Below are positions 313-61,426 of a stretch of DNA of 64,000 nucleotides, one piece after another. Source of the DNA: Somniosus microcephalus (Eukaryota). The stretch spans positions 30,876,001-30,940,000 of the forward strand of contig JBMRGM010000043.1 in assembly GCA_052327205.1 (NCBI GenBank), written 5' to 3'. The notes below the pieces were generated by a model, which was not told the origin of the DNA, ran no database searches, and saw nothing but the letters and a program-made list of their open reading frames with translations. The first letter of the stretch is position 1. The number at the start of each line of letters is the position of its first letter. The translations under genes and the position numbers were made by a program.

Positions 313-588
313 AACTCTTCTCCAAACCTAAACTGAGGACTGACCCTGCAGTTGAAATATTTGAGGGACACCAGTTAGTATTCATCTGTATTATTGAAAC
401 AATGCCGTACAGTAATGGGCTTCAATACTCATTTTACAAAAATGGCAAAGCTCTGATATTGACTTCATACAACACATTTAAGCTCACGGAGACAGCTTCT
501 TTGAAGGACTCGGGGACTTACCTGTGTGAAGCAAATATTTCCTACCGCGTTGTGAAAAAGAGTGATGAGGTTTCCATTGCGGTTAAAG
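313..588 (+). CDS. Gene A Ig exon (type A: ELFSKPKL...FIC...YSFYKNG...DSGTYLC)
   Basis: ttcacAG acceptor, G|GTAAG donor, 276 nt, phase 1-1, both Ig cysteines and DSGxYxC present. Confidence 0.9.
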
Positions 589-3500
589 GTAAGGACAGCC
601 AGCTGTAATTATTGTTGAATGAAAGAATTCTTCAGGGGATTATACTTAAATAAACATACGAGAGGGATCCAGTCTGGTAAAGGATTTACCCACAAGTTTA
701 TGACGTAATAATCAATTTTGAATGCAACCTGCTAAATGACAGCGCCACCTGGTTCTTACACTATCCATACATTTGCTGAAAACCGAAGTTTTAAAAGCTG
801 CTACGTTTGAGGACCAGCGCCCACTCCCAGTGGGTAATAGTAGCTTCCTGAAATAGTGTGGAATTGGGCGATATTGAATTTATCTCCCATTATATGTCCC
901 GACCGTTTTTGCATCCATTGATCTTCAATGGACAGGAATATCGCGCGTAGTGTAGAATTGGTGCAAGATTCGATGCCGTGCATTTTAACCCATAACCCCA
1001 AGGTAAAGTTACCTTCCCTGTTTCTAACTGGCATATTCAGCAGCGAGCAGAACCTGGTCAGGAACAGCAGGGTGATTAATCAGCCAATGCCTTACCACTT
1101 ACTAGCCCCGGAAATCTTCTATAGTTGAAAACTCGGGGGTAAAATTTAACATTGACAGCGCTAAAACTGAACGGCAGAAAATTGAATTGAAATTGGCCTG
1201 TGTTTATAAAGGGTGATCAATCTGCTACCACCGGTTTTTTACCCCAGACAAACTTGAATTTTCACCCCCTCCAATTTCAGTAGCGGTGGATGCAAAATGC
1301 CCGAGGTCACTAACGTCTGTGCCTCTGGTGCCCGGGGATTCCTTCCCAATCTTTTAGATCCGACCAATCATAACTCGAGCTTCGCATTTTCAATGGGGCA
1401 GGCAATCTGAAAACAAGGTGGGAGTTATCAATCCTGTGTCGGCAGTGGATTTCAGAAAAATTGTATTGATAGTAGCTGAGCGTTTAACATGAAGGTCCTA
1501 AAATTTGCAGTTGCTGCCACAACGACCAAGGATATTTCAGTATTTAAGACCCGGGAGTAAAGCATCGCCTGGGCTGAGAGCTGAGTTCAAATGATGGGGT
1601 TGTGGGGTTGGGGTGTTGGGGGATAATCTCACAGGACCCGCAGGATGTTTCTTCCATTCATTTCAATGGAAGGGTTAACTTGTTCCCAAATCTAGCCACG
1701 ACAGGATGTTCAGACCTCAAGTGATAACTGTGTCAAGGTCCCGAACTGCATATTCCCGTAGCAGAGCGCAATCAAGGATTATTGAAAGCCTCTTTCTCTG
1801 AGCTGCTGTCGGCTTTTCATTCTTCTGCTCATTAACGTGAGTTGTCCAAACACATAAATTGTTAAGTCTGTGATGGATGTGGAACCCGGAAAATCCATGC
1901 ATTATTCTATTTTATAGAGGTCTTCTCCATACCTACACTGAGGGCTGAGTCTGGAGCTCAATTATTTGTGGACCAACAGTTAAATCTCGCCTGTTTGGTT
2001 AAAATATTTCGATCCAATACTTCCTTGAGACTCGTATTTTACAAAGATGGACAATCTCTCACTTCAGCGGCAGACAACAACTATTACATCAAGAAGGCAT
2101 CTCGGCCGGACGATTCGGGGAATTACTGGAGCGAAGCAACTACTTTGAACAGTGAGGTGAAGAAACTGAGTAATCAGGTTTCCGTTTCAGTCAGACGTGA
2201 GTACAATTTAAGACAATGTTATAACACTTTTAAAGAGAACATGAAAATCATAGAATACGGGTAGCGCTGATTCAACAGTACACCAGGGAAGTAAAAGTGT
2301 ATTCACCAGGATAGACTTGAGGTATTGGGACTAACACTACCGGGTTAGCCATAGCTAAAGGTTATTTCATTAGTGGTCTTTAAATGCAAATTCCGAAATT
2401 GGGCGATTAGGGAAAGATATTTTCTCTGATTGCGAAGACAGGAAGGAGGGATCAGTAATGTATAATTATCATTAAAGCGGGAGGGTAGCGCTTAGAAGGA
2501 CGTTCCGAGTGCTGGAACATAGAATGATTTGCCAGGTGGAGCGGTGGAGTTAGATAGAATTTTACAGTGAACATGAGGCTAGTGGCAGTGCCCTCGGGCC
2601 TACTGATGTGCGCCTGTCACTGCCCTACAGAAACCAGCGTAAGCCCGTCCCAACATAAGCAGATCTCTTGCTAATGGATGAGAGAGTGTAGCTGAGCCAG
2701 GCATATAGCTGAGGCCAGGAAGGTTTGGCGCACTCTTTCCTTATCGTCACAACGCAACTCGGGCAATGTGTGCCCTCTGGGAGGCTCAGAAATCAAAAGG
2801 AGCTGGATGCACACCTTCCATAATCTGGTCGGAGGGGGGGATGGAATGCACCTCACAGAATCCGGTGGAGTTTCCTTCTGTTGAGATCAATGGAGTACAT
2901 TTACTGTGAGTTCGGTAAGCAATAAGTGATCACTAGTGCTAGATTTTCTAATCCCTTATGTGCTCGGGCGTTGCTTAACCGTCGTTCCCAAAATAGTTTA
3001 TTTTCAGTGTATCAAACTAAGAAGAGCTGGGCCAAATGGTGGGGAGCTGCTGCACGAGGATAGATTATCAATAAACCCCATTTACAACCATCAGTAAATT
3101 CAACACCACCCGACTGCTGTTTCCTTTCTGTTCTTCTTTTTCCCAGACTTGCCTGGAGTTGGGATTGGGGTTTTCTCGTGTCCAATGTATACGGGCTGTT
3201 GTGGAGCAGTTCTCAGTTTGAGTTAAGCATTTGTTAAGCTAAAACCGCCACATTTTGTTCCCAACATTAGATCGCAAAGTGGCCTTCAATGTCGACCCAC
3301 CTTCGGTTTTGGAAGGAGGTGTTCTGAATCTGAATTGTTGGTTCAGAATGCATTATTGGAGGCATAAAGATGTTGGCTTTTACAAGGGCAATATAAGGAT
3401 TCACTCAATGAAGTTGACCGATCGGAGAGCTCTGCATAGCATTAGAGTGAATAGTTCAAAAGACAGCAGATCATACCATTGCACTGTTGGCAATAAGGAA

Positions 3501-6500
3501 TCACGAAGTGTTCATGTTCACGTTCAAGGTACGTCGGCAATATTTCAATTGGCGATATCGCTCTTGGATATTTATCCATATTACAGGTCCGAGAGGTTCT
3601 GAATCTGTCCACATTTATGCATAGCTTTGTGAGCTCGGAAGAATTTGTACGTGTTAGGTCATAGAGGCCTTGAATTTCCGTTCGGCGGTTTCCTGCCGGT
3701 AGATGCCTCCAATCGGAAACAAATCTATGAACTTACCTGCTGGTTTGGAGAGCCCGAGGCTTCCGATCCTGGGCCTCTCCTGTTGGAAATGCGCAGAGGC
3801 CCAGGTATCCCAGGGGCACATACGGTTTGCAAGCGCTCCTGGGATCACGTGAGAAAGGCGAACAAATCAAAGAAGGGAATCCCCCTTCATACATTTGACA
3901 GGTCTGTAGGGACTGAACTGTCAAAAGTATGATTGGGAACCACATTTAAAAACACACTAAAACAGTAAATAAACTATTTATAATTACAAAATTAAAATTC
4001 CATTTAATTAAATATTTTAAACATAATTTATAGAAAAAAAATTAAACATTTTTACTGGGCTATAAATAATTTACCGTTTCAAGAGTATTTCTAACTTATA
4101 AGTGAGTGATCAAATTTGTTATTTCTAACTTTCATCACTCTTATGCCTACTTTTACCAGTCAGACGAATTCTACAGCCTTTCAGCTGCCGGAAGTTGTGC
4201 AAACTCTCCAGCCACAGAGGCTCTTTTCTTGGGCAAGTGGATCATCTGTCAAGAGAATTCTTGACAGATCGCAGGTGCCGGTTTTAAGCGCATACCTGAA
4301 ATCGGTACCTGCAAGGCCCCTATGGGTGAGTACACAGCTCGTATGCACCCGTGGGGGTTGGAAAACTTGGCCCATGATGGCTGTCTAACACCGTGCTACT
4401 TTAGCCAATAATTAACCCAGGGTGGGTCTCCTCCCGTGCTAACGCCGGCAGCTATCTTTCTCCTCCCGCCCCACCTCAGAGGAGAATTTGGCGGCTTCCC
4501 ATTACCAGCCTGTTACATCAAGAGGCTGACGGGGAGTATTCCCCCACTAAACCGAAATATGATGGTGCCTCTCTCCCTAACAACCACGATGATGAGTTGA
4601 CAAAATGCACCAGCAGGTACTCCTGAAAATTCAGTGGCGGGTCCGCTGATGGACTGTGTGGAAGGACACAATAAGCAGTGTGCTCCTCTCCCCTCTCTTT
4701 TGCCCTTTCCACTTACCTGTTTGGCATAAGCTTAATCACAGGCTCCTAATAAAATCTGTACGCTGATGCCGTTGGATGCCCTTATCATCGCAACGGGTGA
4801 GTTATATCATCACTGATCCATCACCCTGGCCGGGAGAATCGGGAGTCTTTTTAATTTCAGATGGTGACAGCTGAGCTGGGGGCTGGCTAGGGACAGAGCA
4901 ATGTAGCTGTGGATATTGGTGGAGTTCACCCTGGTCATACTAGATGGTGAAGACGCAGCAGAGAATGGCTAAAAGAGAAAAGATCTAAGGGAGGATATTC
5001 CTGCTGATAATTAAGCCTTGCCCAGTATGGAATTCCGGTTTCAGCAGAATAAATTAAGCAGGTTAAGTTCTCCGCAAACAAAGCAGCGAGAGGAAATCCA
5101 TAAAAACATAATAATGCTTCCTGCTCTAGTGATCCACAATACAGCTGCTGGTTACCATTAAGTATAGGCGCCCATCGTGGCTATTCTCTAGATGTAATCT
5201 CTCCAAATTTGCAGACAACACAAAGCTTGCTGGGCGTGTGTGCTATGAGGAGGATGCCAAGAAACTCCAGGCTGATTTGGAGAGATTGGGTGATTGGGCA
5301 AAAGCGTGGCAGATGCAATATAACGTGGATAAATGTGAGGTTATCCACTTTGGTGGCAAAAACAGGAAGGCAGATTATTATCTGAATCGCAATAGATTGG
5401 GAGAAGGGGAAGTGCAACGAGACCTGTGTGTCCTTGTGCACCAGTCGCTGAAGGTAAGCATGCAGGTGCAGCAGGTGGTTAAGAAGGGAATTGGCATGTT
5501 GGCCTTCGTAGCGAGATGGTTTGAGTACAGGAACAAGGATGTCTTGCTGCAGTTATACAGGGCCGTGGTGAGACCACACCTTGAGTATTGTGTGCAGTTT
5601 TGGTCAGCTTATCTGAGGAAGGATCACAGATCACAGAAACCCCACAGTGCAGATAGAGGCCATTTCGGCACATATCCCACCCAATCCCCGTAACCCCTAC
5701 ACCAAAACATATCCCCATTTAATCCCCCTAACACTAAGGGTCAATTTATCATAGCCAATCAACCTAACCCGCCATGGAAGGAGTTCAGCGAAGATTCACC
5801 AGGCTGATACCTGGGATGGCAGGAATGACGTATGAGGAGAGATTGGGTCGATTGGGCTTGTCCTTGCTGGAGTTTAGAAGAATGAGAGGGGATCTCATTG
5901 AAACTTATAAAATTCTGACGGGACTGGACAGACTAGATGCAGGAAGAATGTTCCCGATGGTCGGGCAGTCCAGAACCAGGGGTCACATTCTAAGGATAAG
6001 GGGTAAGCCATTTAGGACAGCAATGAGGAGGAATTTCATCACCCAGAGAGTGGTGAACCTGTGGAATTCTCTGCCACAGAAGGCAGTAGAGGCCAATTCA
6101 TTAAATATATTCAAGAAGGAGTTGTATATATTTCTTAAGGCTAAAGGGATCAAGGGGTATGGGGATAAAGCAGTGACCAGGTACTGAATTTGGTTGATCG
6201 GCCATGATCGCATTGAATGGCGGAGAAGGCTCGTGGGGCCGAATGCCAACTCCTGCTCCTATCTTCTATGTTTCTATGATTCTCGGTATTGGCTTGCTCT
6301 TATTATCAATCTCTGCTATTTGTTTAACACAGTGATAGGAACTGTTACCTATCAATCCATATTCTGTTTTCACAGAACTCTTCACCAAACCTAAACTGAG
6401 GTCTGAGCCTGCAGTTGAAATACTTGAGGGAGACCAGTTAAAATTCATCTGTTTTATTGAAAATATACCGTCAAATATTTGCTTAAAATATTCATTTTAC

Positions 6501-9500
6501 AAAAATGGCACAGCTCTGATCTTGACCCCATACTACAAATATATTCTCACTGAGGCAGCTTCATTGAAGGACTCAGGGACTTACCAGTGCGTAGCAAATG
6601 CTTTCGACTTTGGTGTGAAAAAGAAGAGTGATGAGGTTTACATTTCGGTAACAGGTATGGACATCCAGCTTTAATTATTGTTCATCTTTCATTTAAAGAA
6701 TTCTTCAGGGCATTATAGTTAAGTAACCATACGGGAGGGATCCGGTCTGGTAAAGGGTTAACCCTCAAGTTTATCGGGTATAAATCAATTTGAATGCAAT
6801 CTTTTCAAATCTTATCACCACGTGGCTCTTATACAATCCTTACATTTGCTGAAAACCGCATTTGTAGGAGCTGCAAAATTTGAAGTCCAGTGCCCACTCT
6901 CAGTGGGTAACATTAGCTTCCTTCAGTAGTGTGGAAATGGGCGATTATGAAATTGCCTCCCATTATTTGTCCCGCCCGTTTTTGCTTCCCATCATCTTCA
7001 GCAGACAGGAAAATCGTGCGTGGTGTACAATTGGCGCAAGCTTCGATATTGGAAATTTTACCCCATGGCTCCAAGGTAAAGATACTTGCTCTGTTTCTGT
7101 CTGGCTGAATGAGAAACCAGCAGAACCTGGTCAGGAATAGCAGGGTGTTTAATCAGACAAAGCCTTAGCACTTACTAGTCCCGGAAATCTTTGATAGTTG
7201 AATACTCGGGGGTAAAATTTAACTTTGAGAGCGCAGTAGCGGATCAGCAGACAATGGAATTGAAATTTGCCTGTGTTTATAACGGGAGGCCAATCTGCGA
7301 CCACCGGTTTTGCACCCCATCGAAATTTGAAATTTCACCCCGTCCAATTTCAGTAGAGGTGGAAGAGGATGAGGAAAAACGCCCGAGGTCACTAAAGTGT
7401 GAGCCTTTGATGCCCAGGAATTCCGTTTCCACTCCGTTAGATCCGGTCAATCATAACGCTATCTTTGCATTTTCTATGGAGCAGGCAATCTGATGACAAG
7501 GTGGGAGTTATCGATCCTGTGTTGGGAGTGGATTTCCAAAGAATGGCATTGTCAGTTGCTGAGCTTCTAGCATGAATGTCGCAAAGTTTGCAGGCGCTGC
7601 AACAATGACGAAGGAGACTTCAGTATTTAAGGCCTGGGCGCAAAGCATCATCTAGGCAGAGAGCTGAGTTAAAATTCTGGATCAGGGGCGCGTTCTGGTG
7701 TTGTGGGCTAATCTCACAGGACCCGCAGGATGTGTCTTCCACTCAATGTTCCAAAGATTAACATTTGCTGCACAAATCCGAAATTGTAATGTCTGTGATA
7801 GTTGTGGAATCTGTCAAATCCATAATTCGTTCTATTTTATAGAGCTCTTCTCCGAACCTACTTTGCGGGCTGATTCTGGAGCTCAATTATTTGAGGGCCA
7901 ACAGATAAAACTCGCCTGTTTGGTAGAAATATTTCGATCCAATTCTTCCTTGAGACTCGTATTTTACAAAGATGGACAACCTCTCAATTCAGCGGCAGAC
8001 CACAGCTATTACATCAGGGAAGCATCTCGGCCGGAAGATTCGGGGATTTACCGGTGTGAAGCAACTACTTTGAACCGTGAGGTGAAGAAACTGAGTAATC
8101 AGGTTTCAGTTTCAGTCAGACGTGAGTACAATTTAAGATAATTGTTTATCACTTTTAAAGAGAACAGGAAAATCATAGAGAACGAGTAACGCTGATTCAA
8201 CAGATGATGCCAGGGAATGGAAATTTTATTCAACAGGATAGACTTGAGCCACTGGGACTAACACGGGTTTGCCATGCCTAAGAGTTATTTCATCAGTGCT
8301 TAGTACATGCCAATTGCGAGATAGGGCGATTAGGGAAAGCTATTCCCTCTGTTTGCGAAGACAGGAAGGAGGATCAGTAAAGTATAATTATCACTAAAAG
8401 CGAGAGGGTAGCGCTTACGTGAACATTTTATGTGTAGCTGACTGCTGGAAAGTAGAATTATTTGTCAGGTGGAACGGTGAAGTTAGATACCACTGCATTT
8501 AGGTAGAGTAATGTTTATGTTATTGGAATAGTGCAGAGTTCCTGCTTTTCACTAGCAGAGTCAGGAGGAATAAGGACCAGGCCAACATAGTAGGGTGGCC
8601 ATAAGTGGATTGCAGTAGGAATCATTGTCGTTCCAGGATCAGGCTTTCCTCTATTAATTCCACCTACTGCTAAAGTAGGAGAGGGAGACGGGCGCCCAAT
8701 ATTGGTGTGGTAACCTATATGTCGAGCCTTCTTTATTATGATGAGAACCCTATTTCACTTTGAAAGTAATGCTACAAATTCTGCAAAAGCAATGTAATTA
8801 ACAATTTGCAGGAACCCCAGTGTCAAAACCGGAACTGGCAATCAGCCCTGGTAAAGAGTTAATAGAAGGAGACACAGCGTCGTTAACCTGCTCAGTGTTC
8901 AACGGTTCTACCCCGATTACTTACATTTTCTACAAAGACCCGGATAAAGAACTCCTCCGCGAGGAGTCCAACCTAACCGAAATTAATTACCAAATCAGTG
9001 AAATCAACCAAAGCACCCAAGGGGATTATAGTTGCGGTGTTTCAAACAAAGCGACAGGACGTCCTCTGCAAAGCGATGTTGTTACAGTTTCAGTGATAGG
9101 TGAGTTATTATAAGTACCCCTGAGGCAGAACGAAACAAGTGGCTCAAAGTCAGATGAGCCCGGTAATCACTGCTTGTGCCATCAGCTTGGATGGTGTAAC
9201 ATTTTCTTTGACATTCCTCTATGTGAAGTGAGGCACTGCACCATTTACATTAAACAGGTGAATTACTAAAAAGAACTAGAATGTCATCTGATCGCATCAA
9301 GTATTGGTCTATAAACTGCAACAGTTATTTGTAGGTTTAAAAAGGCCGATCAGTATGTTTAATTGACAAATTGAGGGAAGTAATACGGATAATTTAAGGA
9401 CTCAAAACTTAATGCCATAGGTAGTAGTTTCTGGGCTATATGTTTTAGACCACCATTTCTCGACAGTTGTTGCTAATATATTTGTATTCGTTTATGTGAT

Positions 9501-12500
9501 GTGGGTATCTCTGGCAATGCCAGAATTTATTGCCTATCCCTAATTGCCCTTGAGAAGGTAGTGCTGAGCGGCCTTCTTGAACCGTTGCTGTCCGTGTGTT
9601 GACGGTACTCCCGTAGTGCTGTGAGGGAGGGAGTTCCAGGAATTTGACGCAGTGACGATGAAGGATCGGCGATAAACTTTTAAATCAGGATGGTAGATGA
9701 TTTGTAAAGGATCTTACAGGTGCGGTGTCCCCATGCCTCTTCTGCTCTTGTCCTTCTAAATGGAAGAAGTATCGGGTTTGGGAGGTGCTGCCGAAGAAGT
9801 CTTGGCATGTTGCTGCAGTGCATCTTGTAGATGGTGCACACTGCAGCCATGATACGCTGGTGGTGGAGGGAGTGAATTTGTTACTTGTTGGATGATGTGC
9901 CAATCAAGGAGGCTGCTTTGTACTGGCTGGTGTCGAGCTTCTTGAGTGTTGTTGGAGCTGCACTTATCCAGGCAAGTGGAGAGTATTCCGTCACACGACT
10001 TACTTGTGCCTTGTAGATGGTTGAAAGGCTTTGGGGAGTCAGGAGGTGAGACACACGCCGCGGATTACCCAGCCTCTGCCCTATATCGATATCATGGTAC
10101 CAGGTAGAAGTTTCATAAAGCTTGATCTGATTTCATGAAATACTTTTCTTTCGACAACGCAAAAAGTATATTGATTTCGTATGATTTATACGTCATAAAG
10201 GACACATCACACCTCAGGTGAACATTTATAAGTCTAGTTTCTGATTAAGAAATTGATCGTAACTAGATGGAAATAGACCTGAAATAAACTAGCAGAATTT
10301 CCCACAAGCGCTTTAGAATTTGAAATTGATAAGGTCAAAAGCAGAGCCATGGTTATAAAGCGAGAGAGAGGGAGAGATTGGAAGGGGTGAGCAAAAAACT
10401 GGCTGCAAATATGGGTCTTGTAGGAAGTTTGAAGCAGGCTGTAGTAGAGATGTAAATGCGATTAATGAGATGGTTTAAGAGAGCAGAATCAAATTACTTT
10501 CACTAATGGTGTGACAAAGGAAGCGTATATGCCCAATCGGCCACAAATCAATTGACTAAACTGTGTAAAGACAGAGATAAAATTGGAGGAGATTTGTCAG
10601 AGATATAGTGAACAGGAGGACCAGGAGTTTAAGTTTATTACATTGGAGGACAGGGAGCTAGATGAAAACAATGGCGAGTAAGAATTAACGTGGGACAGGG
10701 ACGTTTGGATTAGTTGGAATTAGTGGACAGCGGGGTCAGGAGCCCAGAAAGGAAGTCATTGTAATAATCGAGGCTAGAGCTTGCAAATCCACGGATCAGT
10801 GTTTCAGCGTGCAGGGGTTGAGGTGGGTAGAAAGGGAATCAATTTAGTGCAGATTAAAAAATAAAAATTAATTCTGCGTATGGTGCGAGGTTGAATTTGT
10901 TATGATTGGAACGGTTTTATATGATTCATGGAATAATTTTGTTTGATTCCAGCACAAAGTCACACAACCGCGATCACAGCAGCCGTTCTTCCACTTTTTC
11001 TGATCGCTACCCTGATTGCACTGGTTTCCTTCAAACTTCGGAAAAAGAAACAAGGTGAGCAGTGTCTTACGGGCAGCTGAGTGGCTTGACAGTTACGTGA
11101 GGGGATTCAATCCCCTCCATATTCAGATGCAGCATTCGAAATGTAACAGAATGATTTGAGAGGGAGACCAATAGTGTGGGCTGGAGAACGAAGACTTAAT
11201 TACCAGGATAAGTTCGGATCATGAAGTCAGCTTACTGGTTTGAGGGTATTTTTCCACCTTCTTCCATTTTGAAAAGGTCTGCATCTTGGCGAGGGACAGA
11301 CAAATAACTGGCAGGTGGTTAGTAAGAGAATGTGAAATCTGATAGCGGATGTCTAATGCCTGGTAACATCTTAAAGTTTCCCAGACGCTCTTTGTGCATT
11401 CGTCCTCTGTTTTAGTTAGTGATTCATTTAAATGCACGTTTGCAACAGTTTCTGATTAATAATCAACGAAAAAGTTTACTGTTTGGAGATTACTTAAGGT
11501 AACTCAAGCCAGCTCTAGCCAGGAAGAGCGCAATATTTACTGCACAACTTGCTGAAATATGTCTCTTCCTATTTTATCCAGACAATTCCTCAAGTGTTTC
11601 ACAGCCGCAGGGGTAAGTCTGCAAAATATTTGTATTTGTCAGTCATAACTATATCCATGATTATACTGAAAGGGTGAACATCGTCTTTGGCATGGTTGCA
11701 AATCAGGCGGCATTGCATCTACCACCATTTATACACCCCCGAATTGAACTGAATATTGGATGGACATTGATGGGCGGTAGGGGCACTTCAGTCAGTTATT
11801 CCTCCACGCCCAATTCGAATTCTCCCCGTAGTATCTGATATAGCTCCGCTGGAGACAGTTACAATTTTTAAGAGCTAAATATTACCTTATTTTTGTTTTT
11901 GCTTTTTAGTTTATCAACAGGCCAGTCAGCCTAACATAGTTATTTGGAACCATTATTAGGGAAAAAATAAACTTTTATTTGGAAATCATGGTTTAATCAA
12001 GGAGATCCAACATGGATTTGTTGAAGGCAAATCGTGTCTGACAAACTCGATTGAATTCTTTGATGAGGTAACAGAAACTTTTGATCAAGGTAGTGAAGTA
12101 AATGTTGTATATTATAGACTTTCGGAAGGCAGTCGACCGAGGCTTGTTAAAAAATATGTAAACTCATGGGATTAAGGGAACGTGGCGGTATGGATAGGGA
12201 ATTAGCTCGGTGACAGGATGCAGAGTGTGGTGGTGGATGGATGTTTCTCAGACTGGGAGGCGGTTTTGCAGTTCTGTTCCCCAAGGGTCAGTTTGGGGTC
12301 CATAACTCTTTGCAATTGCAATGAGCGACCGAGATTAAGGTGTAGGGGGCAACATTGTAAACTTGCAGATGACACATAACTTGGCCAGGTAGTAGATAGT
12401 GATGAGGATACTTGTAGTCTTCAGGGTAACATAGACAGGAATGGTTAAATGGGCAGAAGCATGGCACTTGGAGTTCAACCCTGAGAACTGTGAAGTGATG

Positions 12501-44500: not shown

Positions 44501-47500
44501 ATTGATGCATTATAGGACTGGCACCACAATTACAGTATTTGTAAATGACAAAATCACTATTGGCACTTTGTAAGTTCCATCTCTCGGGAGTAGTATCCTT
44601 AGAACCTGCACACGAACTCCACTGTTCTGGTTTTTAGATAACTATTGTGTGGAATATCGTAATTGGCCAGACTCTTAATGTCACCATAAAATGCAACGAC
44701 GATAACAAATCCTTAATATAACTCGATCGATACAGTTGAAGGCAAGTAACGTGTACATTTGGCAAACATAATCCATTCTTGGACATTTAAATCAATGCTA
44801 TGCAATTAATGGTTATATAACTGAGGGGAATGATATGCTCTAATTCCATGCACTATATACATATTATGGATACTAATACGATTTTCTCAATTCATTATCG
44901 CTGTCAATTAATTTATACCAAGCAATCAGTCAGTCTAGCTCTGTAAATAGGTATCCATGTGTCCATCAATATCTTTCTATCTATGACTTTGCTCACGGGC
45001 CTGTGGAGCAGCTTTTATTGATCAGGTTAATTAGTTGCTTCATTTTAAAACCAGTGAACACAGCAGTAAATTTCCAATCATGAATTGTAGGATGGATCTG
45101 GTATCTAAGTGCTTCCTTGATTATCATTGATCGCAGTTTCCTCTTTCTCGCTCTACAGCTTCTAGTTCTGATCAGATAACCCACAGTTTAGTACAAGGCA
45201 CGAAGCCCATGGAAGGTAAGGATCCGCTGTGTTACTTTGCTGGAGGGCTTGTTAACTACTGTAAGGGTAGTGACTGTCTTCAGATTGTGAGACATCATCT
45301 GGGAAGAGCCTGAATCGATTGATGCATTATAGGACTGAAACCACAATACCAGTATTTGTAAATGAAAAAAATCACTATAGGCACTTTGTAAGTTCCATCT
45401 CTCAGGATTAGTATCCTTAGAACCTGCACACAAATTCCCCTGTTCTGATTCTTAGATAACATCATAATTGGCCGGACAATTAATGTTGCCATAAACTGCA
45501 ATGACGATAACAAATGCTTAATATAAGTCGATCAATAAAGTTGAAGGCAAATAATGTGTACTTTTGGTGGCAAACATCATCCATTCTTGGACATTTAAAA
45601 CAATGCTATTCAATTAATGGTTATATATCATCCTTATTAAACTTATGGAAATGACATCATCTATTCCCATGCACTAAATTCATATTATGGATACTAATAC
45701 GGTTGTCTCAATACATTATCGCTAGCAATTAATTTATATCAAGCAATCAATCAGTCTACCTCTGTAAATAGCTATCCATGTATCCATCAATATCTTTCTA
45801 TCTATGTATCTATCTATCTTTATATCTATCTTCCAAATATCTATGTATCTTTCTATCTATCACTCCATGTCTTCCTCCCTATTTCTCTATATATATCTAT
45901 CGTCCCTCTATCATCTATATATTAATCCATCTTAATGAAGCCTTATTTTTGTCTTGTTTTCTCTTTTTGTTTCTGTTTAGATATTACCGGAAATGCTGCC
46001 AATTTAGTGTATTCGGAGGTCACGATCAGAAAGTCACGAGGCTGTGGTAATTTCTGTCAATTGTTCGCAGCTGTTGCTAAGCAAGATGATAATTACAGTT
46101 CTACATAATGTTGGGTTATTCCTCTGCTTGATATAGTGGGAATGAGGTACATGGACTGTAAACTAAATAGTGGGGAGGGGGGAGGGTTCAGTTGAAGGGG
46201 AATTTAGAAAGTCAAACAGAAAGGAGGAGGTAACAGTGCAAGGTAGCGATAGGGGTAATGATAACCAGAGATTGACAGGAGGAGACAAAGCATACAGACA
46301 TAAACGTGCACTTGCAAACAGATTCAGAGTAGTTAAAAATGGTATAAAAATAAATAAAAGCTCTTTAACTGAATGCATGCAGCATTCATAACAGGATAGA
46401 TGAGTTGCCGGCACAAATCGAAATAAATGGGCATGATCTGATAGTCATTACAGAGACGGGGTTGCAAGGTGACCAATTCTGGGAACTGAATATTCAAGGG
46501 TATTTGATATTTCGGAAGAATAGGCAGAAAGCAAAAGGAGTTGGGTAACTCTTTTAATAAAGGATGTGATCAGTGCAGTGGTGAGAAATGATATTGGCTC
46601 AGAATATCAAAATATAGAATTTGTTTTAACGGAGATAATAAATAGTAAGGGAAATAAATCATTAGCGGGAGCAGTCTATAGCACTCCTAACTGTAGCTAC
46701 ACTGTGTAGGACAGTGTATAAATCAAGAACTAATAGGGGCTTGTAAGTAAGGTACTGCGATAATCATGGGCGATTTTAATATTCATATAGCTAGAACAAA
46801 TCTAATTGACAAGGTTAGCCTTGAGGTCGAGTTCATAGAATGTATTCGGTATGGTTTCTTAGAACAATACGTTGTGGAATCAACCAGGGTGATGGCTATT
46901 TTAAATCTGGTAATATGTAATGGGGCAGGATTAATTAATGATCTCATGGTAAAGGATCCTCTTGTGAAGAGCGATCATAGCATGATGAATTTCTAATTCA
47001 GATTCAGGGTGAGAAACTTGGGTCTGAAACTTAAATAAATTCAATTACAAAAGGTATGAAGAAAGAGTTGGCTAAAGTAGACTGGGAAAATAGATTAAAG
47101 TGTAAGACGGTAGATAGGCAGTGACAGATATTTAATGAGATTTTTCATAACTCTCAGCAAAGATTTATTGCAGCGTGCAAGAAAGACTCTACGAGAAGGA
47201 TGAACATCCGGGGCTAACTGACGAAGTTTAGGATGGTATCAAATTGAAAGAAAATGCATAATATGTTGCAAAGATTCGTAGTAGGTGAGAATTGGGAAAT
47301 TTTTGAAAATCAGCAAAGGATGACTAAAAAATTAATAGAGGTAGAAGATAGATTATGAAAGTAAACTAGCAAAGAATATAAAAAAACAGAGACTAAGAGC
47401 TTCAACAGGTATATAAATGAAAGATAATAGCTAAAGTAAACGTTGGTCCCTTAGATGATGGGACTGGGGAATTAATAATGGGAAACGGGGAAATTGCAGA

Positions 47501-50500: not shown

Positions 50501-51714
50501 TAAGCCTGGGCCGAATTTGTGAAATCTAAATCATTCTGTCTGCAAAGGTCGCTGCTAAACTTGCTCCACACCACTAAAGTAGCCCCTGATTAGTAATTTA
50601 AATCCCGACCATTATTTTAAAATTCAGTTGCCAGTTGTTTACAGAATAATAAAGAACATTGTAGTTTTGTTCCACCGAAAGATCATTGCAAATATGGGTG
50701 CAGTAGCTTCGTGGTTACATAACTGGATCAATAATCCAGAGGTCTCGACTAATGGTCCGAAGACATCAGTTCAAATCCCAGCACTGGCAGCTGGGGAAAG
50801 TAAACTCAGTTAATTAAATACATCTGGAATAAATAGCTCATAACAGTAATGGTGACCATGACACACTCTGGTTGTTGTAAAACCCAACTAATGTCCTCAA
50901 GGAAGGAAATTGGCTGTCCTTACCTGGTCTACCCTGTATGTGACTCCAGACTCACTAGCAATGAGGTTGACCCTTAACTGCCCCTAAAATGGCCGAGCAA
51001 GCCAATCAATTGTACCAAACTGCAAGAAAAGGCATTAACCCTATGGGAACACCTCCCCCTCCAAGTCACACACCATCCTGACTTGGAAGTATATTGCCAT
51101 TCCTTCATCGCTGCAGGGTCAAACTCCTGGAACTCACTCCCTACCAGCACTGTGGGAGCACCATCACAACACAGACTGCAGCGTTTCAAGAAGGCGGCTC
51201 GCCACCATCTTCTCAAGGGCAATTAGGAATGGGCAATAAATGCTGGCCTTGCCAGCGACGCCCACATCCCGTCAATGAATAAAAAATTATCATCGCTTGT
51301 TTAAATTTAGTCGGTGGTTTATTCATTGCTCGTTTCAATCCAACCATTTTATTTTGATTTTTAACTATAAAAGTAAATTAATAGAGGAATTATAAGTGAA
51401 ATTGTGTGAGCTCAGCCAGTTAATTGTCAGTAGTTTTGACCATACTGTAAATCGGGCAATATTGAATTGGCCATCCATTATCCATCTCTCCCGACTTCCC
51501 TTCCACTGAAATCACCACTGATTCTCTCTCGCCAGCTGTGCGCCACCACCTGAGACAATTTCAGCCCCATATTCTTTAATTCCAGGATAACAAGATTGGT
51601 CCCAGCGACTATTGTGTCACGTACGCCACAGTTAACCGCACAAACACTGAAGCTAGTTTGGAAGGACGTCCAATGGAAGAAGGCTGTGTCTACGAAAACC
51701 TTCCACGGAAATAA
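26532..51714 (+). CDS. Gene B: FCRL-like inhibitory receptor, ~576 aa if the two dead Ig exons are skipped (26532-26562, 28102-28146, 31617-31871, 33688-33954, 36355-36633, 37513-37800, 40584-40685, 41211-41241, 43242-43333, 44323-44379, 45159-45215, 45981-46046, 50082-50113, 51586-51714); otherwise a pseudogene
   Basis: The 14 exons join to an open 1731-nt frame: leader MIHICRLLTLSAGSCIVFTSISCNP, 4 Ig domains, TM and ITIM tail. Confidence 0.65.
27133..27295. repeat. Imperfect (GA)n microsatellite (paralogue ~56289-56430)
   Basis: Direct inspection. Confidence 0.85.
28102..28146 (+). CDS. Gene B leader exon S2 (SAGSCIVFTSISCNP)
   Basis: 45 nt, phase 1-1, ctAG / G|GTAAT; completes a plausible signal peptide; near-identical at 57233-57277. 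Confidence 0.65.
28330..28725 (+). mobile_element. tRNA-derived DeuSINE (SacSINE1-like), nested in an antisense CR1 tail; paralogue ~57460-57850
   Basis: GTGGCTCAGTG A-box head, ACTCCAGTGCAGTGCTGAGGGAG, core GGCAATATTTGTCCCTCAATCAACAT, tail GAAAGGCGCTATAGGAATGCAA. Confidence 0.75.
29690..31300 (+). mobile_element. CR1 fragments (decayed RT 29690-29940, antisense 3' end ~29945-30130, 3' fragment ~30250-31300)
   Basis: QGSVLG, KFAD, HLEYCVQFWSPYLRKD and VVNLWNSLP motifs plus tail. Confidence 0.85.
31617..31871 (+). CDS. Gene B N-terminal Ig exon (type F: HVPEVVL...EGETFYLQC...HWYKD...ASYQC)
   Basis: ctacAG / G|GTAGG, 255 nt, C-W-C Ig signature. Confidence 0.85.
33688..33954 (+). CDS. Gene B second Ig exon (type G: LTLEVNP...GDSIILKC...LWYRD...DTAPYRC)
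   Basis: ttttgcAG / A|GTTGG, 267 nt, C-W-C Ig signature. Confidence 0.85.
34743..35019 (+). pseudogene. Gene B dead Ig exon (type A)
   Basis: Homologous to 313-588/6376-6654, but the acceptor is AG>CG (34741-34742), a 1-nt deletion in a T-run removes the first Cys, and TAG/TGA stops lie near the second Cys. Confidence 0.85.
36355..36633 (+). CDS. Gene B Ig exon (type B)
   Basis: tatAG / C|GTGAG, open 279 nt, both Cys present. Confidence 0.88.
37513..37800 (+). CDS. Gene B Ig exon (type D)
   Basis: ttacAG / G|GTGAG, open 288 nt. Confidence 0.88.
39464..39753 (+). pseudogene. Gene B frameshifted membrane-proximal Ig exon (type E: VPAAGASL...LFLQC...FRWY / ...GGRYHCVATN...YIDVTVP)
   Basis: 290 nt (not a multiple of 3); in-frame TAG at 39586-39588 after WYS; the second half of the Ig domain is in another frame; donor T|GTAAC. 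Confidence 0.85.
40584..40685 (+). CDS. Gene B transmembrane exon (AQSHTTAITATVLPLFLIAALIALVFFKLRKQKQ)
   Basis: ttccAG / G|GTGAG, 102 nt. Confidence 0.88.
41211..41241 (+). CDS. Gene B cytoplasmic exon 1
   Basis: Same sequence and phases as 11582-11612. Confidence 0.8.
43242..43333 (+). CDS. Gene B cytoplasmic exon 2 (FEYAVV motif)
   Basis: cacAG / G|GTAAG, 92 nt, phase 2-1. Confidence 0.78.
44323..44379 (+). CDS. Gene B cytoplasmic exon 3a with ITIM IIYSVV
   Basis: ctgcAG / G|GTAAG, 57 nt. Confidence 0.8.
45159..45215 (+). CDS. Gene B cytoplasmic exon 3b, ITIM inactivated (ITHSLV)
   Basis: ctacAG / G|GTAAG, 57 nt; TAC>CAC at 45182-45184. Confidence 0.78.
45981..46046 (+). CDS. Gene B cytoplasmic exon 4 with ITIM LVYSEV
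   Basis: Paralogue of 15520-15585 with intact splice sites. Confidence 0.83.
46130..49790 (+). mobile_element. CR1 fragment cluster, paralogue of 15670-19670 with an internal deletion at ~48285
   Basis: MGDFN, KFADITKL, QHGFMEGK and KFADDTK motifs. Confidence 0.9.
50082..50113 (+). CDS. Gene B cytoplasmic exon 5 (DNDDGASGRKQ)
   Basis: Paralogue of 19959-19990. Confidence 0.8.
51586..51714 (+). CDS. Gene B last coding exon (DNKIGPSDYCVTYATVNR...GCVYENLPRK*)
   Basis: Phase-0 acceptor, ITIM VTYATV, YEN, TAA 51712-51714. Confidence 0.85.
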   Translation, partial: DNKIGPSDYCVTYATVNRTNTEASLEGRPMEEGCVYENLPRK

Positions 51715-55671: not shown

Positions 55672-58600
55672 ATGAAGCACATCTGTCGCCTTCTGATCTT
55701 CAGTAAGTGAATCTCAAATATTTCCAGTGCCTTTGAAAGTCAACGTCACTCACCCCTGACAGTTAATCAGATTAATAAGACTCATTCTGTGAGAGGGATC
55801 ATCACGCTATATTAATATTCAGAGATTATTAAGGTCAAACATTCATTTAAAATGCATTGAAATGTCATTTCTATGCTTCAGTTTTAATCAAAATTGAATG
55901 CAACAACAGAAATATGTTTGCTTAGTCAGGCTAACAGGATCTTTCTGCTCATCTAAGGGGATCCCTCTTTACTATTAAAGGTTGCAGCCCACTTAAGATT
56001 GCTTCTAAACGGTCCAATGTTCATTATTTTACCAATTATTTAGCATCACCTGCAGAATCTGGTTGGACATTTCTTATTGTTCTAGTTTTGCTTATGAGGA
56101 AAAAAAAAATTTATACGCTTCATATCAAGTATCAGCGTTGGCTCAGTTGACTCACTCTTACAAATTGCTATTAATACATGCGGTGAGATTTAAAGTGCCT
56201 GGCTTCTGTAGCTAGATGTTAAAATTAGTCCGTATCATTGCTTGATGATTCGAGATCCACAGGCAAGTTTCTTGTTAACATCTGCCACAGAGAGAGAGAG
56301 AAAGATAGAGAGCAAGAGAACGGCAGAGCGAGAGAGAGATAGGGACAGAGAGAGACAGATAGACAAAGATAGGAAGAAAGTAACAATCTAGATGTGCACG
56401 AGGGAGAGTGACAGAGAGAGTGAGAGCGAGGGCAGGAGTGGTTTTCAACTCAGCTTTTCACATTCACTATGAAGGGCTTATTTTATTTTCAGGTGTGAGG
56501 GACAAAATATATATTAGCGGGACGACATCCCTTGAGTTAACAAAGCTGAGGAGAACACATTTACTATGATTTTACTTGAGCTAAACTGACGGCTTTAGGG
56601 TGTTTGGCAGGGAAATTAAAAATGCTGGATCTTTAAAATTAATTTCTGATGCTGTTTACTGGAATTTAGAGATAATTGACTCTTTATGGCCACATGACTT
56701 TGAGGCTACCTTTGTGAGATGCTGACGTCAGCGCTCTATTGTCTTGTTACCCACTGGACCACAAGACCAGCAAACAGGAACAAATAACAGGGTTTGCATC
56801 TTTAATGTACCACCGACTCTTTCACCAGAATCTCATCTTTTTCAATAACTTGACATTAGTTGTGGGACCATGTTGATTAAATCTAGTTCGACAGATTAAT
56901 GAGGTAGAGCATAAAAGATGTGAAGTTAATCTCAAATTGATCATTCTTAAGCATATAATAGGCCCCATGATTTATTTGTTGCACAGCACATGAAACCCAC
57001 TTTTTGGAAATATTGGCCTAACTGAATGCTTGAAACATTCACCCTATTGAGTCCCAGCTGGACGAAAGTCCCAGCGTTTACATGTTGAACAATGAAATAC
57101 AGACACATCTGCACTGATCATTGACCCGTTTGCAATTATTTTTGCAAAGTTGCAGCGACAGGCATTGCCTTAATAGTGTGATTCCTGTGGTCTGAGGCGT
57201 GATAAAAGCTTTCTGCTGCTTTCTGCTTCTAGCTGCTGGGTCATGTATTGTCTTCACGAGTATCAGTTGCAACCCTGGCAATACTTGTAATTCTGATTAG
57301 GTTAAAGATGAGTTCACTGATAATAGGAACATAACAACAGGAGTAGGCCACTCAGCCCTTCGAGACAGCTCTGTCATTCAATTATATGATGGTTGATCTG
57401 TACCTCCACTCCAGTTAACCTACCTGGCTCAGTATCCATTGTTACCCTTACTCAACTAGTGTCAGCCGAGGCTCAGTGTATAGCATTCTCGCCTCTGAGT
57501 CAGAAGGGTCGTGGATTCCGTTCCTACTACAGGGACCTGAGCACAATCATCTAAGCTGATACTCCAGTGCAGTGCTGAGGGAGTGCTGCACTGTCGGATT
57601 GGCTGTCTTTCGGATGAGACGTTACAGTGAGGCCCCTTCCAGGGTGTTTATCCCTGATGCCCTGGGCAATAGTTGTCCATCAATGACGTAACAAGAACAG
57701 ATAATCTGCTCATTATCAACATCATTGTGTGAACATTGGCTGCCACATTCCTACAGTCACTTAACTTTCAAAGTCTTTCATTGGTTTTAAAACGCTTTCG
57801 GAAGTTCGGAGGTCTTGAAAGGTGCTATAGAAACGCAACTATTTCTTTCATTTTAATAAATAAATGATCGATCTCCATCTTTAAAGCACCAATTTACGTT
57901 CCTCTAAAGTCTCATCATCCTGTAACACATCATGTCCTTCATCCAATTGCCACTATTGTTCAATCTTTCTGAAGGTTCTTCCTTTGGAATTCGTGTCTTA
58001 GCTCTCTTGTCCCTCTCCTCCTTAACCCAGCATGTACAAGGGCCGACACAATCCCTGTTGTTCATGGCCCCAGCCAAAGCTGTCACACATTCACCAGTCA
58101 CTATTTCACCTTCATCTAGCCAACGGCCCATTCTAAGATGGATAATTCAACCTCCTCAAATTCCTTTCATTCTATGTCTTTTCCAAATTAATTTTTAATT
58201 AACTTTGCAAGCAGTTCTGCTAAACAAACTTCAAATTCTATCTGTAGAGATTATAATATGGTTATTAGTAACAATAGTCGAAACAAAGGTTGGGCCTTCA
58301 CTGTCCAAATTAACAAAGTCAAAACCCAAAATTACATACAACAGATATAGCAGGCCTGGCTGGGCGATCCTATGGACCCCTGTGTGGAATGTTTATGCCT
58401 CACCTAATCTAACCGATTAAATTCATTGTCTCAAATTATAATGCACGTTTTCCAGGAAAAGGAAACTTAATCAGTCACTCACTTCTCTCAAGCCGAAACA
58501 TACAGTCATGTAAACACAGTATTATTGGTGTAGCCATATACATTTTTAGCCACCCCTAGTTTCTAAAAGTGCTTTTCAGAATAGGTATGCATCTGGGCAA

Positions 58601-61426
58601 GGGGCAGAACAATAAGTTGCAGCATCACTCGTGGTTAGTGTGAGGAGGTGATGTGGCTTAAAGGATTTGTAATTCACTATATGGGAACAACTTAAAGGTT
58701 TCTGCACGTCTTTTCTGCATTAATGCATTTAATGTACGTTTGTAAATATTTAGAATTGAGATGACTGAATATATTTGCTGTTAAACAAAGCCAACTGTAC
58801 AACAATATTTACTACAACTTGCTGAATTTGGTCTCTTCCTATTTTATCCAGACAATTCTTCAAGAATTTCACAACTGGGGTAAGTCCGAGAATTTTTTAT
58901 ATAAATAAGACATCGTGATACCCCTGAATATTTCTGTATAGCTGAATTAAATGTTGTAAATGTTTGTGCGGTAGATTTTTAACTTGCTTTGAGCTTAAAT
59001 CTGGCATTGGTATCAACTGCCTATTATAGAAATCGTCTCATTGTATTTCATTTGAATTCAATGGGATTGAAAATCATTTGCTTTCTACAACCGGAGCCAG
59101 TTCCGCGATGCCACTTTTAAGCTGGGTGGCAAGTTGAAAATATGTCCCTTTGACTATAGGCATCAATAGTAGCTCGCACTCACACTATTATACTCTCTGC
59201 AGTCTGGAAGAAGTGATCTTTTTTCTAATTTATGTCAGTTGTACCTAAAGTTCCTAGCCTAAACTGAGTGAAATTCGCCCTGCATAGTTCAGTAAAAGGG
59301 ACAATTACAAATCGTTTTACAGTCCACACGAAATTAGATTCCAGTGACTTGTGAACGATTTTGTGAAGAAGACTTTATACCCCAAACTCTCCATCACTCA
59401 GTGAGCTTGGCCATTCTTCAATCCTCACATTTAATCATCATGTAAATCACAGGGAACTGAAGCATTCTCGGATTTAGTGTGCAGGGCGATTGTGCATGTA
59501 TTTAATTTTAGTAACATTCAAAGAGTGACTATCTCAGACAGTGCTCCATTTAACTGAACACGCTTTTCTGGATACAGTTCTAAATTTAGTAGCCTTGAAA
59601 CCTTTTGTTGGGAGCGAATATCTCGTCCCCTTGTGAATCCAGTCACAGATTGTTGGCCGACTCTACTATACTGGAACTCTTTCCACATGTGTTTCAACCT
59701 CTTACTGAAAGTTGCTTGAAATTCCGATATGCTTCCATGGCCCTCAATTTGAAACTGTAGTACAATCTTCTTGAGCTTCGGTATAAACACATATCTGTAT
59801 ACAAAATCACCAATCCACTCATTATCATAAATAGTTTTGCCAAAAACTTCTCACTCTTCTTTCAAGACTGCACTTTATCAAAATACTCTAACTCCTTTCA
59901 AGGCTCTGTCTCACAGGTTTTGGAACCAACCTTCTGACTCAGCTGTAATATTCAGGAAGAGTCTAGTATGTTTTTTTAAATGAAAATGATATAAAAATTG
60001 TACTCCCTGCGCCAGATGTGGGAAATCTGCTGGGCAGAACACAGAAAGGAAGATCTGGTGGGAAGGATCTCTTGCTGAAAGCAGCAATGCTTGATTTCTG
60101 TTCCATTAAGTACCGTGAATGGAAAATCTGGCGTGTTGTGTTAAGGATGTGTGAAACTCTGCACCACATTCTCCTCTTTGCGTTCCTTCAACATGATTCT
60201 TAAAAAAAATGGCAGGAAAAAACATTTTACCCCATGAACTTGCAAAAATACCAACTAACATTTTAAGGTGATCTCTCTTGATTTATAAGTTACACGGTTG
60301 TGATGTATCTCAATATTCTCTACACTTTCCTAATTCCCTTTCAACTCTGCACCCACAGTTTTTCCAAACAGATACCCAAATATCAAAGATACAATCTTCC
60401 ATTTATTCGGTATTGACATCTCCCTTCCATTTAGGACACAATCGTGTGAAGTTCATTTTATGGTGGAGTTGAAAACAGCTGCTAATGGATCGCTGGCCAC
60501 TTTTACCCACCGCCTGATTTTGTTTCCAAATTCAGCTGAAGTGTAAACCGAGTGGTTAATCCTCTACCGCCCGCTTTCTGCTGGACGGTAAAAGTGAATA
60601 CTAACATCAACTTTCCAACTTGCCGCTCCAGAATAAACTGGCATTATTGTCAGCCATCCATTAGAGATAGCGCCCGATTTTCCTTTGAATTAATTTCGAA
60701 TTTAGAATAATGCGGCGAGTGCTGTTACTGGGCTTCGATTCCTCCACCAGATTTTTCAATTCTGTACTTGTCCCAGTTGATTCTTACTGCCCAGGCGGTA
60801 ATGTCGATCATATACACACCTCCAGCTGTCACTCTTAACAGTTAACAATCTTCAACGATGAGCAGTATAACTTCATCTGGGGCCACAGCACACAGCGAGC
60901 ACTAGTGAAAATGTGTCGCTTTTTGGACTCCGCCGATTTGAATTTCCATAAATTATAATGGTTCAAAAATGATCTGGAGGACTTCTAAACGGACATCCAT
61001 TTCGCTACCTCTCGCTTTGAGCTGTCTTCAAGGACCAAATTCAACTCCAGTTAATCAAGTTGAGTGAACACTGGAAAATTTCAGTGAGATCATTCAGGAT
61101 CTGCTGAGACTAGGTCTTCAGACCCCTTGGGAGGAAAGTGCCAGAGCCCGGGCCCCTGTCTACCTTGAGCTTCTTCAACTTATCCAATTGATGTGGCCTT
61201 GCGATTTTAAAGAATTGTCTCTTGTAAACTGCTTGCTGATTTTTGACAATTAATCTACGATTTCATTTTATTTAAAAGTGATAGTTCCGTTGTTGGTGAT
61301 TATTGTTAACTTTAATCTCTGAAAACATATCTGCACCAAGGGAGACAACTAGAAACAGACCTCCAGGTGAAGAGAAGTCTGCAGACAATTCCGAGTATGC
61401 AGCTGTGGAATCAGCGCAAAGCACCG
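55672..61426 (+). pseudogene. Gene C: chimeric/truncated FCRL-like locus (S1 55672-55702, S2 57233-57277 with GC donor, tail exons 58852-58879 and 61341-61426 with ITIM SEYAAV); no Ig or TM exon; probably continues past the window
   Basis: Leader exons duplicate those of gene B; homology to the gene B intron ends at 57897; the next recognisable exons are divergent versions of cytoplasmic exons 1 and 2. Confidence 0.65.

Follow-up and report, generated by a model that had tools for sequence, protein, structure and literature searches.

Introduction

Among the described systems closest to the locus reported here are the FCRL families of mammals and of Xenopus. Xenopus XFL receptors occur in pairs that share one ectodomain and have two types of transmembrane (TM) segment, of which the arginine type requires FcRgamma; the NxxR TM geometry associates with FcRgamma (PMC2413239; PMC4536121). 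A 30/21-nt leader is found in mammalian FCRL1-6 and in only a fraction of the XFL genes (PMC2413239). Sharks were given as lacking both FCRL and FcRgamma in a 2014 survey (PMC4016189), and a 2026 review lists cartilaginous fish without FCRL and asks how antibody-dependent phagocytosis occurs there (PMC13337447). In the bamboo shark, genes with the annotations fcrl3, fcrl5 and fcgr1a-like are expressed in B cells (PMC11372145).

Here, we analyzed 64,000 nt of the genome of the shark Somniosus microcephalus (positions 30,876,001-30,940,000 of contig JBMRGM010000043.1, here called C43). This whole stretch is the window, and all feature coordinates listed below are window positions. It contains two receptor genes, A and B, and a relic locus, C, which belong to a much larger cluster on the same contig. 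We consider this cluster, with a probability of about 0.62, to be a birth-and-death set of paired FCRL-related leukocyte receptors, and in our best reading it is a paired family like that of Xenopus, with an activating TM of independent origin. An initial annotation of the window had proposed inhibitory FCRL-like receptors in a cartilaginous fish; the elasmobranch host and the FCRL-like ancestry both received support.

Genes A and B encode receptors with three inhibitory motifs

Genes A and B encode type I immunoglobulin (Ig) receptors with nine and four to five Ig domains, respectively, an uncharged TM, three immunoreceptor tyrosine-based inhibitory motifs (ITIMs) and a terminal YEN motif. 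All named Ig exons of the two loci were located on the plus strand, in phase 1-1 and with AG/GT ends, and range from 255 to 288 nt; the annotated exons of the window, relic C included, span positions 313 to 61426. Pfam Ig families were matched by 10 of the 11 Ig stretches. The exception is exon B1 (1918-2196), which has lost its second cysteine; it is open despite this loss and identical in two further copies of gene A. Symmetric mini-exons bearing an ITIM were called five times on the plus strand and never on the minus strand, compared with a mean of 0.11 and a maximum of 2 in 100 hexamer shuffles.

The part of gene A inside the window reads A1-B1-C-A2-B2-D-TM followed by six tail exons. Its 5' half lies upstream, and after the leader S1-S2 the full ectodomain consists of F-G-C-A-B-C-A-B-D, in which the C-A-B repeat is a duplicated three-exon module, introns included (~81% identity). 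Exon E is deleted except for its final ~25 nt. Gene B reads S1-S2-F-G-(dead A)-B-D-(dead E)-TM with seven tail exons; its dead exon A has an acceptor changed to CCG as well as stops, and its exon E is frameshifted by a 13-nt deletion with the splice sites intact. Within the window, these strings, apart from the place of S2, are as the initial annotation had described them.

The tail phases of both genes resolve to one frame that closes at the stop codon. The idea of a tail built of symmetric exons does not hold throughout, as it fails for t1 (phase 1-2), t2 (2-1) and t6 (1-0). The ITIMs are VTYSLV, LVYSEV and VTYAIV in gene A and IIYSVV, LVYSEV and VTYATV in gene B. Both genes have three canonical ITIMs because the duplicated exon t4b of gene B has His in place of Tyr. 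A tuning of ITIM number, as had been suggested, is therefore not seen in the window; the number does vary among relatives in other sharks. The leader is split over S1 (31 nt) and S2 (30 nt), an arrangement kept in the paralogs examined. The S2 first proposed for gene B was replaced by a conserved 30-nt exon (29288-29317) that resembles the leader of a Heptranchias relative. The earlier 45-nt candidate at 28102-28146 was dropped, as its GT donor is unique to gene B and the better conserved exon was available. A tail exon candidate at 14135/43739 (without a donor and superfluous for the phase) and a 109-nt version of t2 (on phase) were dropped as well.

Features of gene A:
313..588 (+), Ig exon A1, D3 class
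1918..2196 (+), Ig exon B1, D3 class, second Cys lost
3271..3528 (+), Ig exon C, in the FCRL D2 clade (99/97)
6376..6654 (+), Ig exon A2, D3 class
7843..8121 (+), Ig exon B2, top PDB matches FCRL5 and FcgRI D3
8812..9099 (+), Ig exon D, D4/D5/PECAM-d6 superclass
10953..11054 (+), uncharged TM exon; the exon E deletion lies upstream, near 10082
11582..11612 (+), tail exon t1, phase 1-2
13642..13733 (+), tail exon t2, phase 2-1, EYAV motif; acceptor placed from phase and paralogs
14717..14773 (+), tail exon t4, ITIM VTYSLV
15520..15585 (+), tail exon t5, ITIM LVYSEV
19959..19990 (+), tail exon t6, phase 1-0
21459..21587 (+), last coding exon t7, ITIM VTYAIV, YEN, stop

Features of gene B:
26532..26562 (+), leader exon S1, coding part, 31 nt
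29288..29317 (+), leader mini-exon S2, 30 nt
31617..31871 (+), Ig exon F, membrane-distal, hypervariable among the B and B' copies
33688..33954 (+), Ig exon G, with a weak donor (GTTGGT); D2 on the profiles, PECAM d1 in the tree
34743..35019 (+), dead exon A, dead in 10 of 10 B-type copies
36355..36633 (+), Ig exon B, D3 class
37513..37800 (+), Ig exon D
38300..38310 (no strand), switch point to the arginine TM module in six other gene B copies
39473..39753 (+), exon E, frameshifted
40584..40685 (+), uncharged TM exon
41211..41241 (+), tail exon t1
43242..43333 (+), tail exon t2
44323..44379 (+), tail exon t4a, ITIM IIYSVV
45159..45215 (+), duplicated tail exon t4b, Tyr to His, without ITIM
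45981..46046 (+), tail exon t5, ITIM LVYSEV
50082..50113 (+), tail exon t6
51586..51714 (+), last coding exon t7, ITIM VTYATV, YEN, stop

The surrounding sequence contains fragments of the reverse transcriptase of long interspersed nuclear elements at 5133-6280, 17090-19670, 30300-31300 and 47600-49790, and a 37-nt tandem repeat of 5.5 copies between the two genes (24537-24740). On the minus strand, 62242-62929 contains a degraded retroelement frame, putatively like the endonuclease region of Penelope-type elements.

The cluster on C43 contains uncharged-TM and arginine-type members

Exon D gave 36 genomic matches at ≥67% among the best 150 of 338 candidates, all on C43 and 32 of them at 30.33-31.76 Mb; ten correspond to gene A at 98-100% and ten to the B type, at 83-84% to A. 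The TM exon has at least 40 matches, every one on C43, and among the best 40 of 46 candidates about 25 are uncharged and 15, by score class, of the arginine (Arg) type. Because of these 15 members the family is probably not only inhibitory, contrary to the initial annotation. Translation of 12 of the 15 Arg-type TMs shows that each has Arg at the position held by Thr in the uncharged class (TAIRAS vs TAITA), close to the outer membrane end and followed by ~18 hydrophobic residues, a geometry like that of the NxxR TMs which associate with FcRgamma (PMC2413239; PMC4536121). The Arg is retained in divergent paralogs at 21.5, 25.30 and 25.37 Mb; together with an altered juxtamembrane segment and the stop position it is conserved between paralogs ~10 Mb apart, which are 76-79% identical to the uncharged TM. 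The Arg-type members that bear Ig domains end in a short tail of ~50 residues without tyrosine, the sole Tyr of t2 being replaced by Ser in the neighbouring gene X and in the chimeras described below. No ITIM exon was found 3' of t2 in the three Arg-type tails scanned, where read-through stops eight codons into the intron.

Six chimeric genes, called B', follow gene B until window position 38,305 and gene X beyond it. Their junction is identical in all six and has a 3-nt microhomology, over 11.9 kb the chimeras match gene B at 99.2% identity, and the exon chain from F to the TM is open in four of the six. Comparison of the copies indicates that one fusion, later amplified, put the ectodomain of gene B on the Arg module. 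Linked B' and X members with a like ectodomain, a charged TM and a short tail are thus present next to the ITIM forms, as in paired receptors. At the junction, both fusion partners lie within repeat fragments.

The genome also holds two TM exons of the zeta family, one CD247-like on C14 and one FcRgamma-like on C40 (10607082-10607165, minus strand), the latter with the Cys and the Asp and on the same contig as MPZ and nicastrin. These two names are putative assignments from resemblance and from the linkage to MPZ and nicastrin. At C43:25.364-25.380 Mb, a gene consists of S1-S2-Arg TM-t1-t2, has no Ig exon between S2 and the TM and keeps the Tyr motif of t2; it may be a relic, or else a receptor of adaptor-like kind that has no ectodomain. 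At 21.51 Mb there is a comparable set of TM, t1 and t2.

Whole genes have been duplicated in segments, with a spacing of ~70 kb and ~99% identity. Two neighbours differ from A and B in their exon strings: gene Y reads F-G-C-A-B-E with an ITIM tail and gene X F-G-C-A-B-D-B. Exon B is intact in four, frameshifted in three and deleted in three of the ten B-type copies, which bears out the proposed remodelling of ectodomains through gain and loss of phase-1 exons; exon E is intact in three of the four B copies that carry it. This exon-level remodelling is real and rides on whole-gene duplication, the main recent engine of change in the cluster being whole-gene segmental duplication and gene fusion. 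An inverted block is apparent from the D and TM matches on the left side of the cluster, at its end (C43:30.39-30.64 vs 30.70-30.91 Mb).

The flanks (110 kb on the left and 90 kb on the right, with 17 open reading frames compared to Pfam) contain other Ig genes and one histone H3, and no single-copy synteny marker was found among them. To the left, at 30.203-30.206 Mb, lie two Ig exons, one with its best Pfam match to the Ig domain of HIDE1/C19orf38. To the right, at 31.89 Mb, the histone H3 gene (Pfam) is accompanied by an H2A-like frame, and another frame, without a Pfam match, may be the N-terminus of a G-protein-coupled receptor.

Locus C and the orphan leaders

The initial annotation had counted three co-oriented loci composed of Ig exons, a TM and a tail. 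This holds for A and B, whose exons were confirmed; locus C, previously read as S1-S2-tail, has the composition S1-t1-t2 only, without a copy of S2, a TM or Ig exons. Apart from a deletion of ~5 kb, which removed S2 and the TM, it is 85-89% identical to the Arg-TM gene at C43:25.36-25.38 Mb (S1-S2-TM-t1-t2), and it is the deletion relic of an Arg-TM gene. A copy recurs 45 kb downstream at 99.4% identity.

Features of relic C:
55672..55702 (+), leader exon S1
57892..57899 (no strand), junction of the ~5-kb deletion (S2 and Arg-TM exon removed)
58852..58879 (+), t1, Arg-TM lineage
61341..61426 (+), t2, Arg-TM lineage; read-through reaches two stops 8 codons on

Orphan leader exons without Ig exons (S1 with S2, and S1 alone) occur at C43:30.858-30.865 Mb, upstream of gene A, and recur in other units. 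These are further putative deletion relics.

Domain classes and relatives

We placed 100 of ~190 cut domains in a tree of 99 columns, alongside class profiles; the tree does not include the rows of bat, Salarias, gundi and tarsier, a number of shark proteins or the CEACAM/CD22-like rows of fish. Exon C fell inside a clade of FCRL D2 domains only (99/97), its best PDB match being FcgRI D2, and exon E grouped with membrane-proximal FCRL domains of turtle, alligator, kiwi and paddlefish (98/92). Exons A and B scored best on the D3 profile (52-64 bits). Exon F stands alone on a long branch and is weak on the class profiles. The PDB matches of the Ig exons in the window were FCRL5, FcgRI and FceRI; for exon E, FCRL5 (2.7e-17) and contactin-1 (6e-17) were not separated, and for exon D, CD22 d6-d7 scored far below FCRL5, whose score is inflated by its repeated D5 domains.

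In a stricter and incomplete search of the genome with turtle FCRL3, 57 of 59 matches lay on C43, exons E first. Among the proteins compared, the best named matches of gene B outside elasmobranchs were FCRL of turtle and kiwi. Another gene on C43 (25.63-25.66 Mb, minus strand), closer to a canonical FCRL, has D1-, D2- and D4-type exons and two D5-type exons, with ~41% identity to turtle D4/D5. Partial copies of this gene lie near 25.29 and at 30.27-30.29 Mb. The elasmobranch relatives are annotated automatically as FCRL2/3/5 or PECAM-like; 33 of the 39 have a TM, and 28 of these 33 carry at least two ITIMs. PECAM1-like exon series are located on a different contig, C21 (69.78-69.93 Mb), two in tandem; in the second, d1-d2-d3 come before d6-, d5- and D5-like exons. 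PECAM1 as a single locus in d1-d6 order does not describe the C43 cluster, with its domains of types C and E and at least 40 TM exons.

The cluster likely belongs to FCRL proper in the sense of orthology. The 30-nt S2 departs from the 30/21-nt leader; it lowers the case for membership without excluding it, because that leader is not universal in the family.

Selection and the distal domain F

Between paralog lineages, the mean ratio of nonsynonymous to synonymous substitution rates (dN/dS) was 1.01 for exon C, 0.89 for A, 0.76 for G, 0.54 for B, 0.44 for D and 0.41 for F, and most exons are therefore constrained as coding sequence. Gene X, upstream, has open Ig exons, with dN/dS of ~0.45-0.5 for B and D. 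In the B/B' set, seven B-type copies of equal length differ in exon F by 12 distinct nonsynonymous changes and by no synonymous one, and a two-codon deletion occurs in two additional B-type copies. The changes cluster in the loops after the first and after the second Cys, which we take to be BC and FG from standard Ig topology. Their density exceeds that of introns (46 sites in 3,873 nt, p=1.5e-4) and of the nonsynonymous sites of G and D together (p=4.6e-4). In the unpaired gene A, exon F has four nonsynonymous and two synonymous changes in nine copies. The copies behind these counts are not phylogenetically independent of one another. Diversification of the distal domain may point to F as the place of ligand binding.

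Expression and previous descriptions

Over the exon bins, read depth was ~0-1 in two RNA runs labelled as the same species, and the sparse reads were mostly on the expected sense strand. The term "fcrl" had no match in the portions searched of the supplements of PMC11372145, and the accessible part of PMC5278576 offers gene ontology terms only. The literature searched, which does not extend to most subscription journals, yielded no account of an FCRL cluster in sharks or of paired forms. The family had been suggested to be uncharacterised. This does not hold for its members as such, since automatic annotation of many elasmobranch genomes names them FCRL2/3/5 or PECAM-like. What appears to be undescribed is the paired architecture, along with the TxxR module of local derivation and the putative partner resembling FcRgamma.

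Proposed function and alternative explanations

Read as paired receptors, and by analogy with FCRL, LILR and XFL, ITIM forms of the A/B type would probably be phosphorylated upon ligand binding, recruit SHP-1/SHP-2 and damp the activation of B cells or myeloid cells, and the terminal YEN of their tails could bind a Grb2-type adaptor. For the Arg forms, the odds are about even that they associate with an FcRgamma dimer through its Asp and, upon binding the same ligand, transmit an activating signal. The ligand itself might be variable, either a microbial surface molecule or a polymorphic self molecule, and touch the distal domain F; we would give this half a chance. In this proposal F diversifies in the B/B' pair because the variable ligand contacts it, and such a ligand is likelier than an Ig Fc. 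FCRL3 and FCRL5 double as bacterial attachment receptors (PMC12534707).

A number of observations weigh against paired FCRL-related receptors. Of the six markers of the 1q21-23 region (MPZ, PRCC, nicastrin, FcRgamma, PIGM and Ets), none is on C43: MPZ, nicastrin and FcRgamma are on C40, PRCC on C41 and PIGM on C5, and 0 of 43 Ets matches lie on C43. SLAM, IGSF9, DUSP23, TAGLN2 and KIRREL were outside this set of markers. Linkage to the leukocyte receptor complex was not found either, CNOT3 being on C28. The flanking synteny proposed as a check in the initial annotation thus gave no support, and because the 1q21-23 linkage is missing we file the cluster as FCRL-related and not as plain FCRL. 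Among the domains, exon G groups with PECAM1 d1 (98/89), the D3 clade that holds A and B (97/88) also takes in PECAM d3/d4, and exon D has its best profile score with PECAM d6 (66 bits, against 47/48 bits for FCRL D4/D5) and an undecided placement in the tree. All 12 translated Arg-type TMs have TxxR (AIR preceded by T) and none has NxxR; because of this and of ~81% DNA identity between the Arg-TM exon and the inhibitory TM of the cluster itself, the activating TM would be a local derivative and not the ancient NxxR module. No Arg was read, by eye, at the TM position of the 33 TM-bearing elasmobranch relatives, and a direct search for Arg-type TM proteins in other species, a weak test with 128 candidates, none of them scored, found none. 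Disruptive lesions affect many of the copies, and the ectodomain is missing from some of the Arg-TM genes. No exon-exon joint of the window genes was among the joints listed for the two RNA runs, in which repeats dominate the signal. For exon F, the comparison of nonsynonymous with synonymous changes alone is not significant (Fisher p=0.13), dN/dS is low (0.41) between paralog lineages, and gene conversion could account for the clustered changes. Apart from these points, an Ig exon at C28:42.237 Mb, 190 kb from CNOT3, is a candidate gene of a shark leukocyte receptor complex.

Several of these observations would also fit a family that is only inhibitory, with the Arg-TM short-tail genes as decaying or non-signalling decoys carried along by segmental duplication: lesions are frequent, relic C recurs at 99.4%, one Arg-TM gene has no ectodomain, the Arg type was not seen in the annotated relatives, and the RNA joints listed include none from these genes. 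We regard this as unlikely in view of the Arg, juxtamembrane segment and stop position kept over ~10 Mb, the open Ig exons of gene X with their dN/dS of ~0.45-0.5 for B and D, and the limitation of exon F diversification to the paired set. About as doubtful is the proposal that these are true Fc receptors for IgM, IgW or IgNAR complexes, similar to FCRL5 and including the functionally inferred IgM receptor of shark leukocytes. In its favour, FcgRI, FceRI and FCRL5 are matched by the domains of D2 and D3 type, an Arg-TM form with FcRgamma would provide phagocytic signalling, human FCRL5 binds two IgG Fc via D1-D3 (PMC12757038), and a 1988 paper on a shark IgM Fc receptor and a 1997 paper on IgM opsonization are cited in PMC6795676. 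However, mouse FCRL5 does not bind IgG (PMC12757038), Ig binding has been argued to be derived (PMC2413239), and a fast-changing distal loop in a variable domain order would seem ill-suited to an invariant Fc.

A cartilaginous-fish sister family, descended from a common FCRL/PECAM1 stock with mixed domains on a chromosome of its own, is slightly less probable still. It would accommodate the position of G, the unplaced D, the long branch of F, the absent synteny markers, the 30-nt instead of 21-nt S2 and the many relatives auto-named PECAM-like. Yet genes with the PECAM domain order are located on C21, best hits with turtle FCRL are reciprocal, C43 itself carries a gene whose exons are of types D1, D2, D4 and D5, and exon E is common in the tree only to FCRL proteins. 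That the high copy number is largely an over-expansion of the assembly, as might be suggested by the inverted block and by identities of 98-100% in ten copies of type A and ten of type B, is very improbable: divergence among the copies is 0.6-1.5%, nested indels are common to several of them, one has an insertion of its own and exon losses are distinct, and the classes A, B, X and Y are 15-30% apart.

The paired FCRL-related reading can be joined with that of an Fc receptor. In this joint form, a complete FCRL-type paired system of ITIM receptors, Arg-TM partners and FcRgamma would be present in cartilaginous fish and date to the jawed-vertebrate ancestor, its activating TM would, in the lineage of this shark, have arisen anew from the inhibitory TM when Thr was replaced by Arg and tail exons disappeared, and would then have been grafted onto a hypervariable ectodomain, and one member would be the shark IgM Fc receptor; taken as a whole, this is a long shot. 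The cluster, its shark and ray relatives and the FcRgamma-like exon argue against the reported absence of FCRL and FcRgamma from sharks, and specific genes can now be named for testing the question of antibody-dependent phagocytosis in these animals. The B/B' set would be a paired receptor caught at birth: a single fusion gave an Arg-TM module the ectodomain of an inhibitory receptor, whose distal domain diversified afterwards.

Comparison with known systems

The proteins annotated automatically as FCRL2/3/5 or PECAM-like in Heptranchias, Heterodontus, Scyliorhinus, Narcine and other elasmobranchs match the domains, TM and tail exon by exon and, on this basis, clearly appear to form one orthologous family with the cluster; they differ in that the Arg type is seen in 0 of the 33 with a TM, and they are known as database predictions. 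With PECAM1, the cluster has D3-like and d6-like classes, the grouping of G with d1 and a VYSE-type ITIM in common. PECAM1, however, lacks C- and E-type domains, the shark family is multi-copy and paired, and the PECAM1-like genes of this shark are on C21.

Mammalian FCRL3, FCRL5 and FcgRI are the top PDB matches for exons B, C, D and G, and a 31-nt S1, up to nine Ig domains and ITIMs with a terminal YEN are further likenesses. The shark S2 has 30 instead of 21 nt, the window genes are without a clear D1, D4 or D5, and the cluster is unlinked to the 1q21-23 markers examined. FCRL of turtle, alligator, kiwi and the paddlefish Polyodon are the best matches outside elasmobranchs and have domain E (98/92), D2 and D3 types and an ITIM tail, often with YEN near its end, in common with the cluster. 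Identity is 25-30%, the shark expansion is much larger, and the order is F-G-(C)-D3n-D-E in the shark vs D1-D2-D3-D4-(D5)-E.

The arrangement as a whole most resembles Xenopus XFL (PMC2413239), which likewise forms a large intermingled cluster with a split leader and combinatorial Ig exons with a repeated D3, and combines ITIM forms with an uncharged TM and Arg-TM forms with a short tail, including pairs that share an ectodomain and differ in the TM. Unlike in Xenopus, the shark TM is a locally derived TxxR version, the short tail is encoded on separate exons, and the cluster has the additional shark-specific domains F and G.

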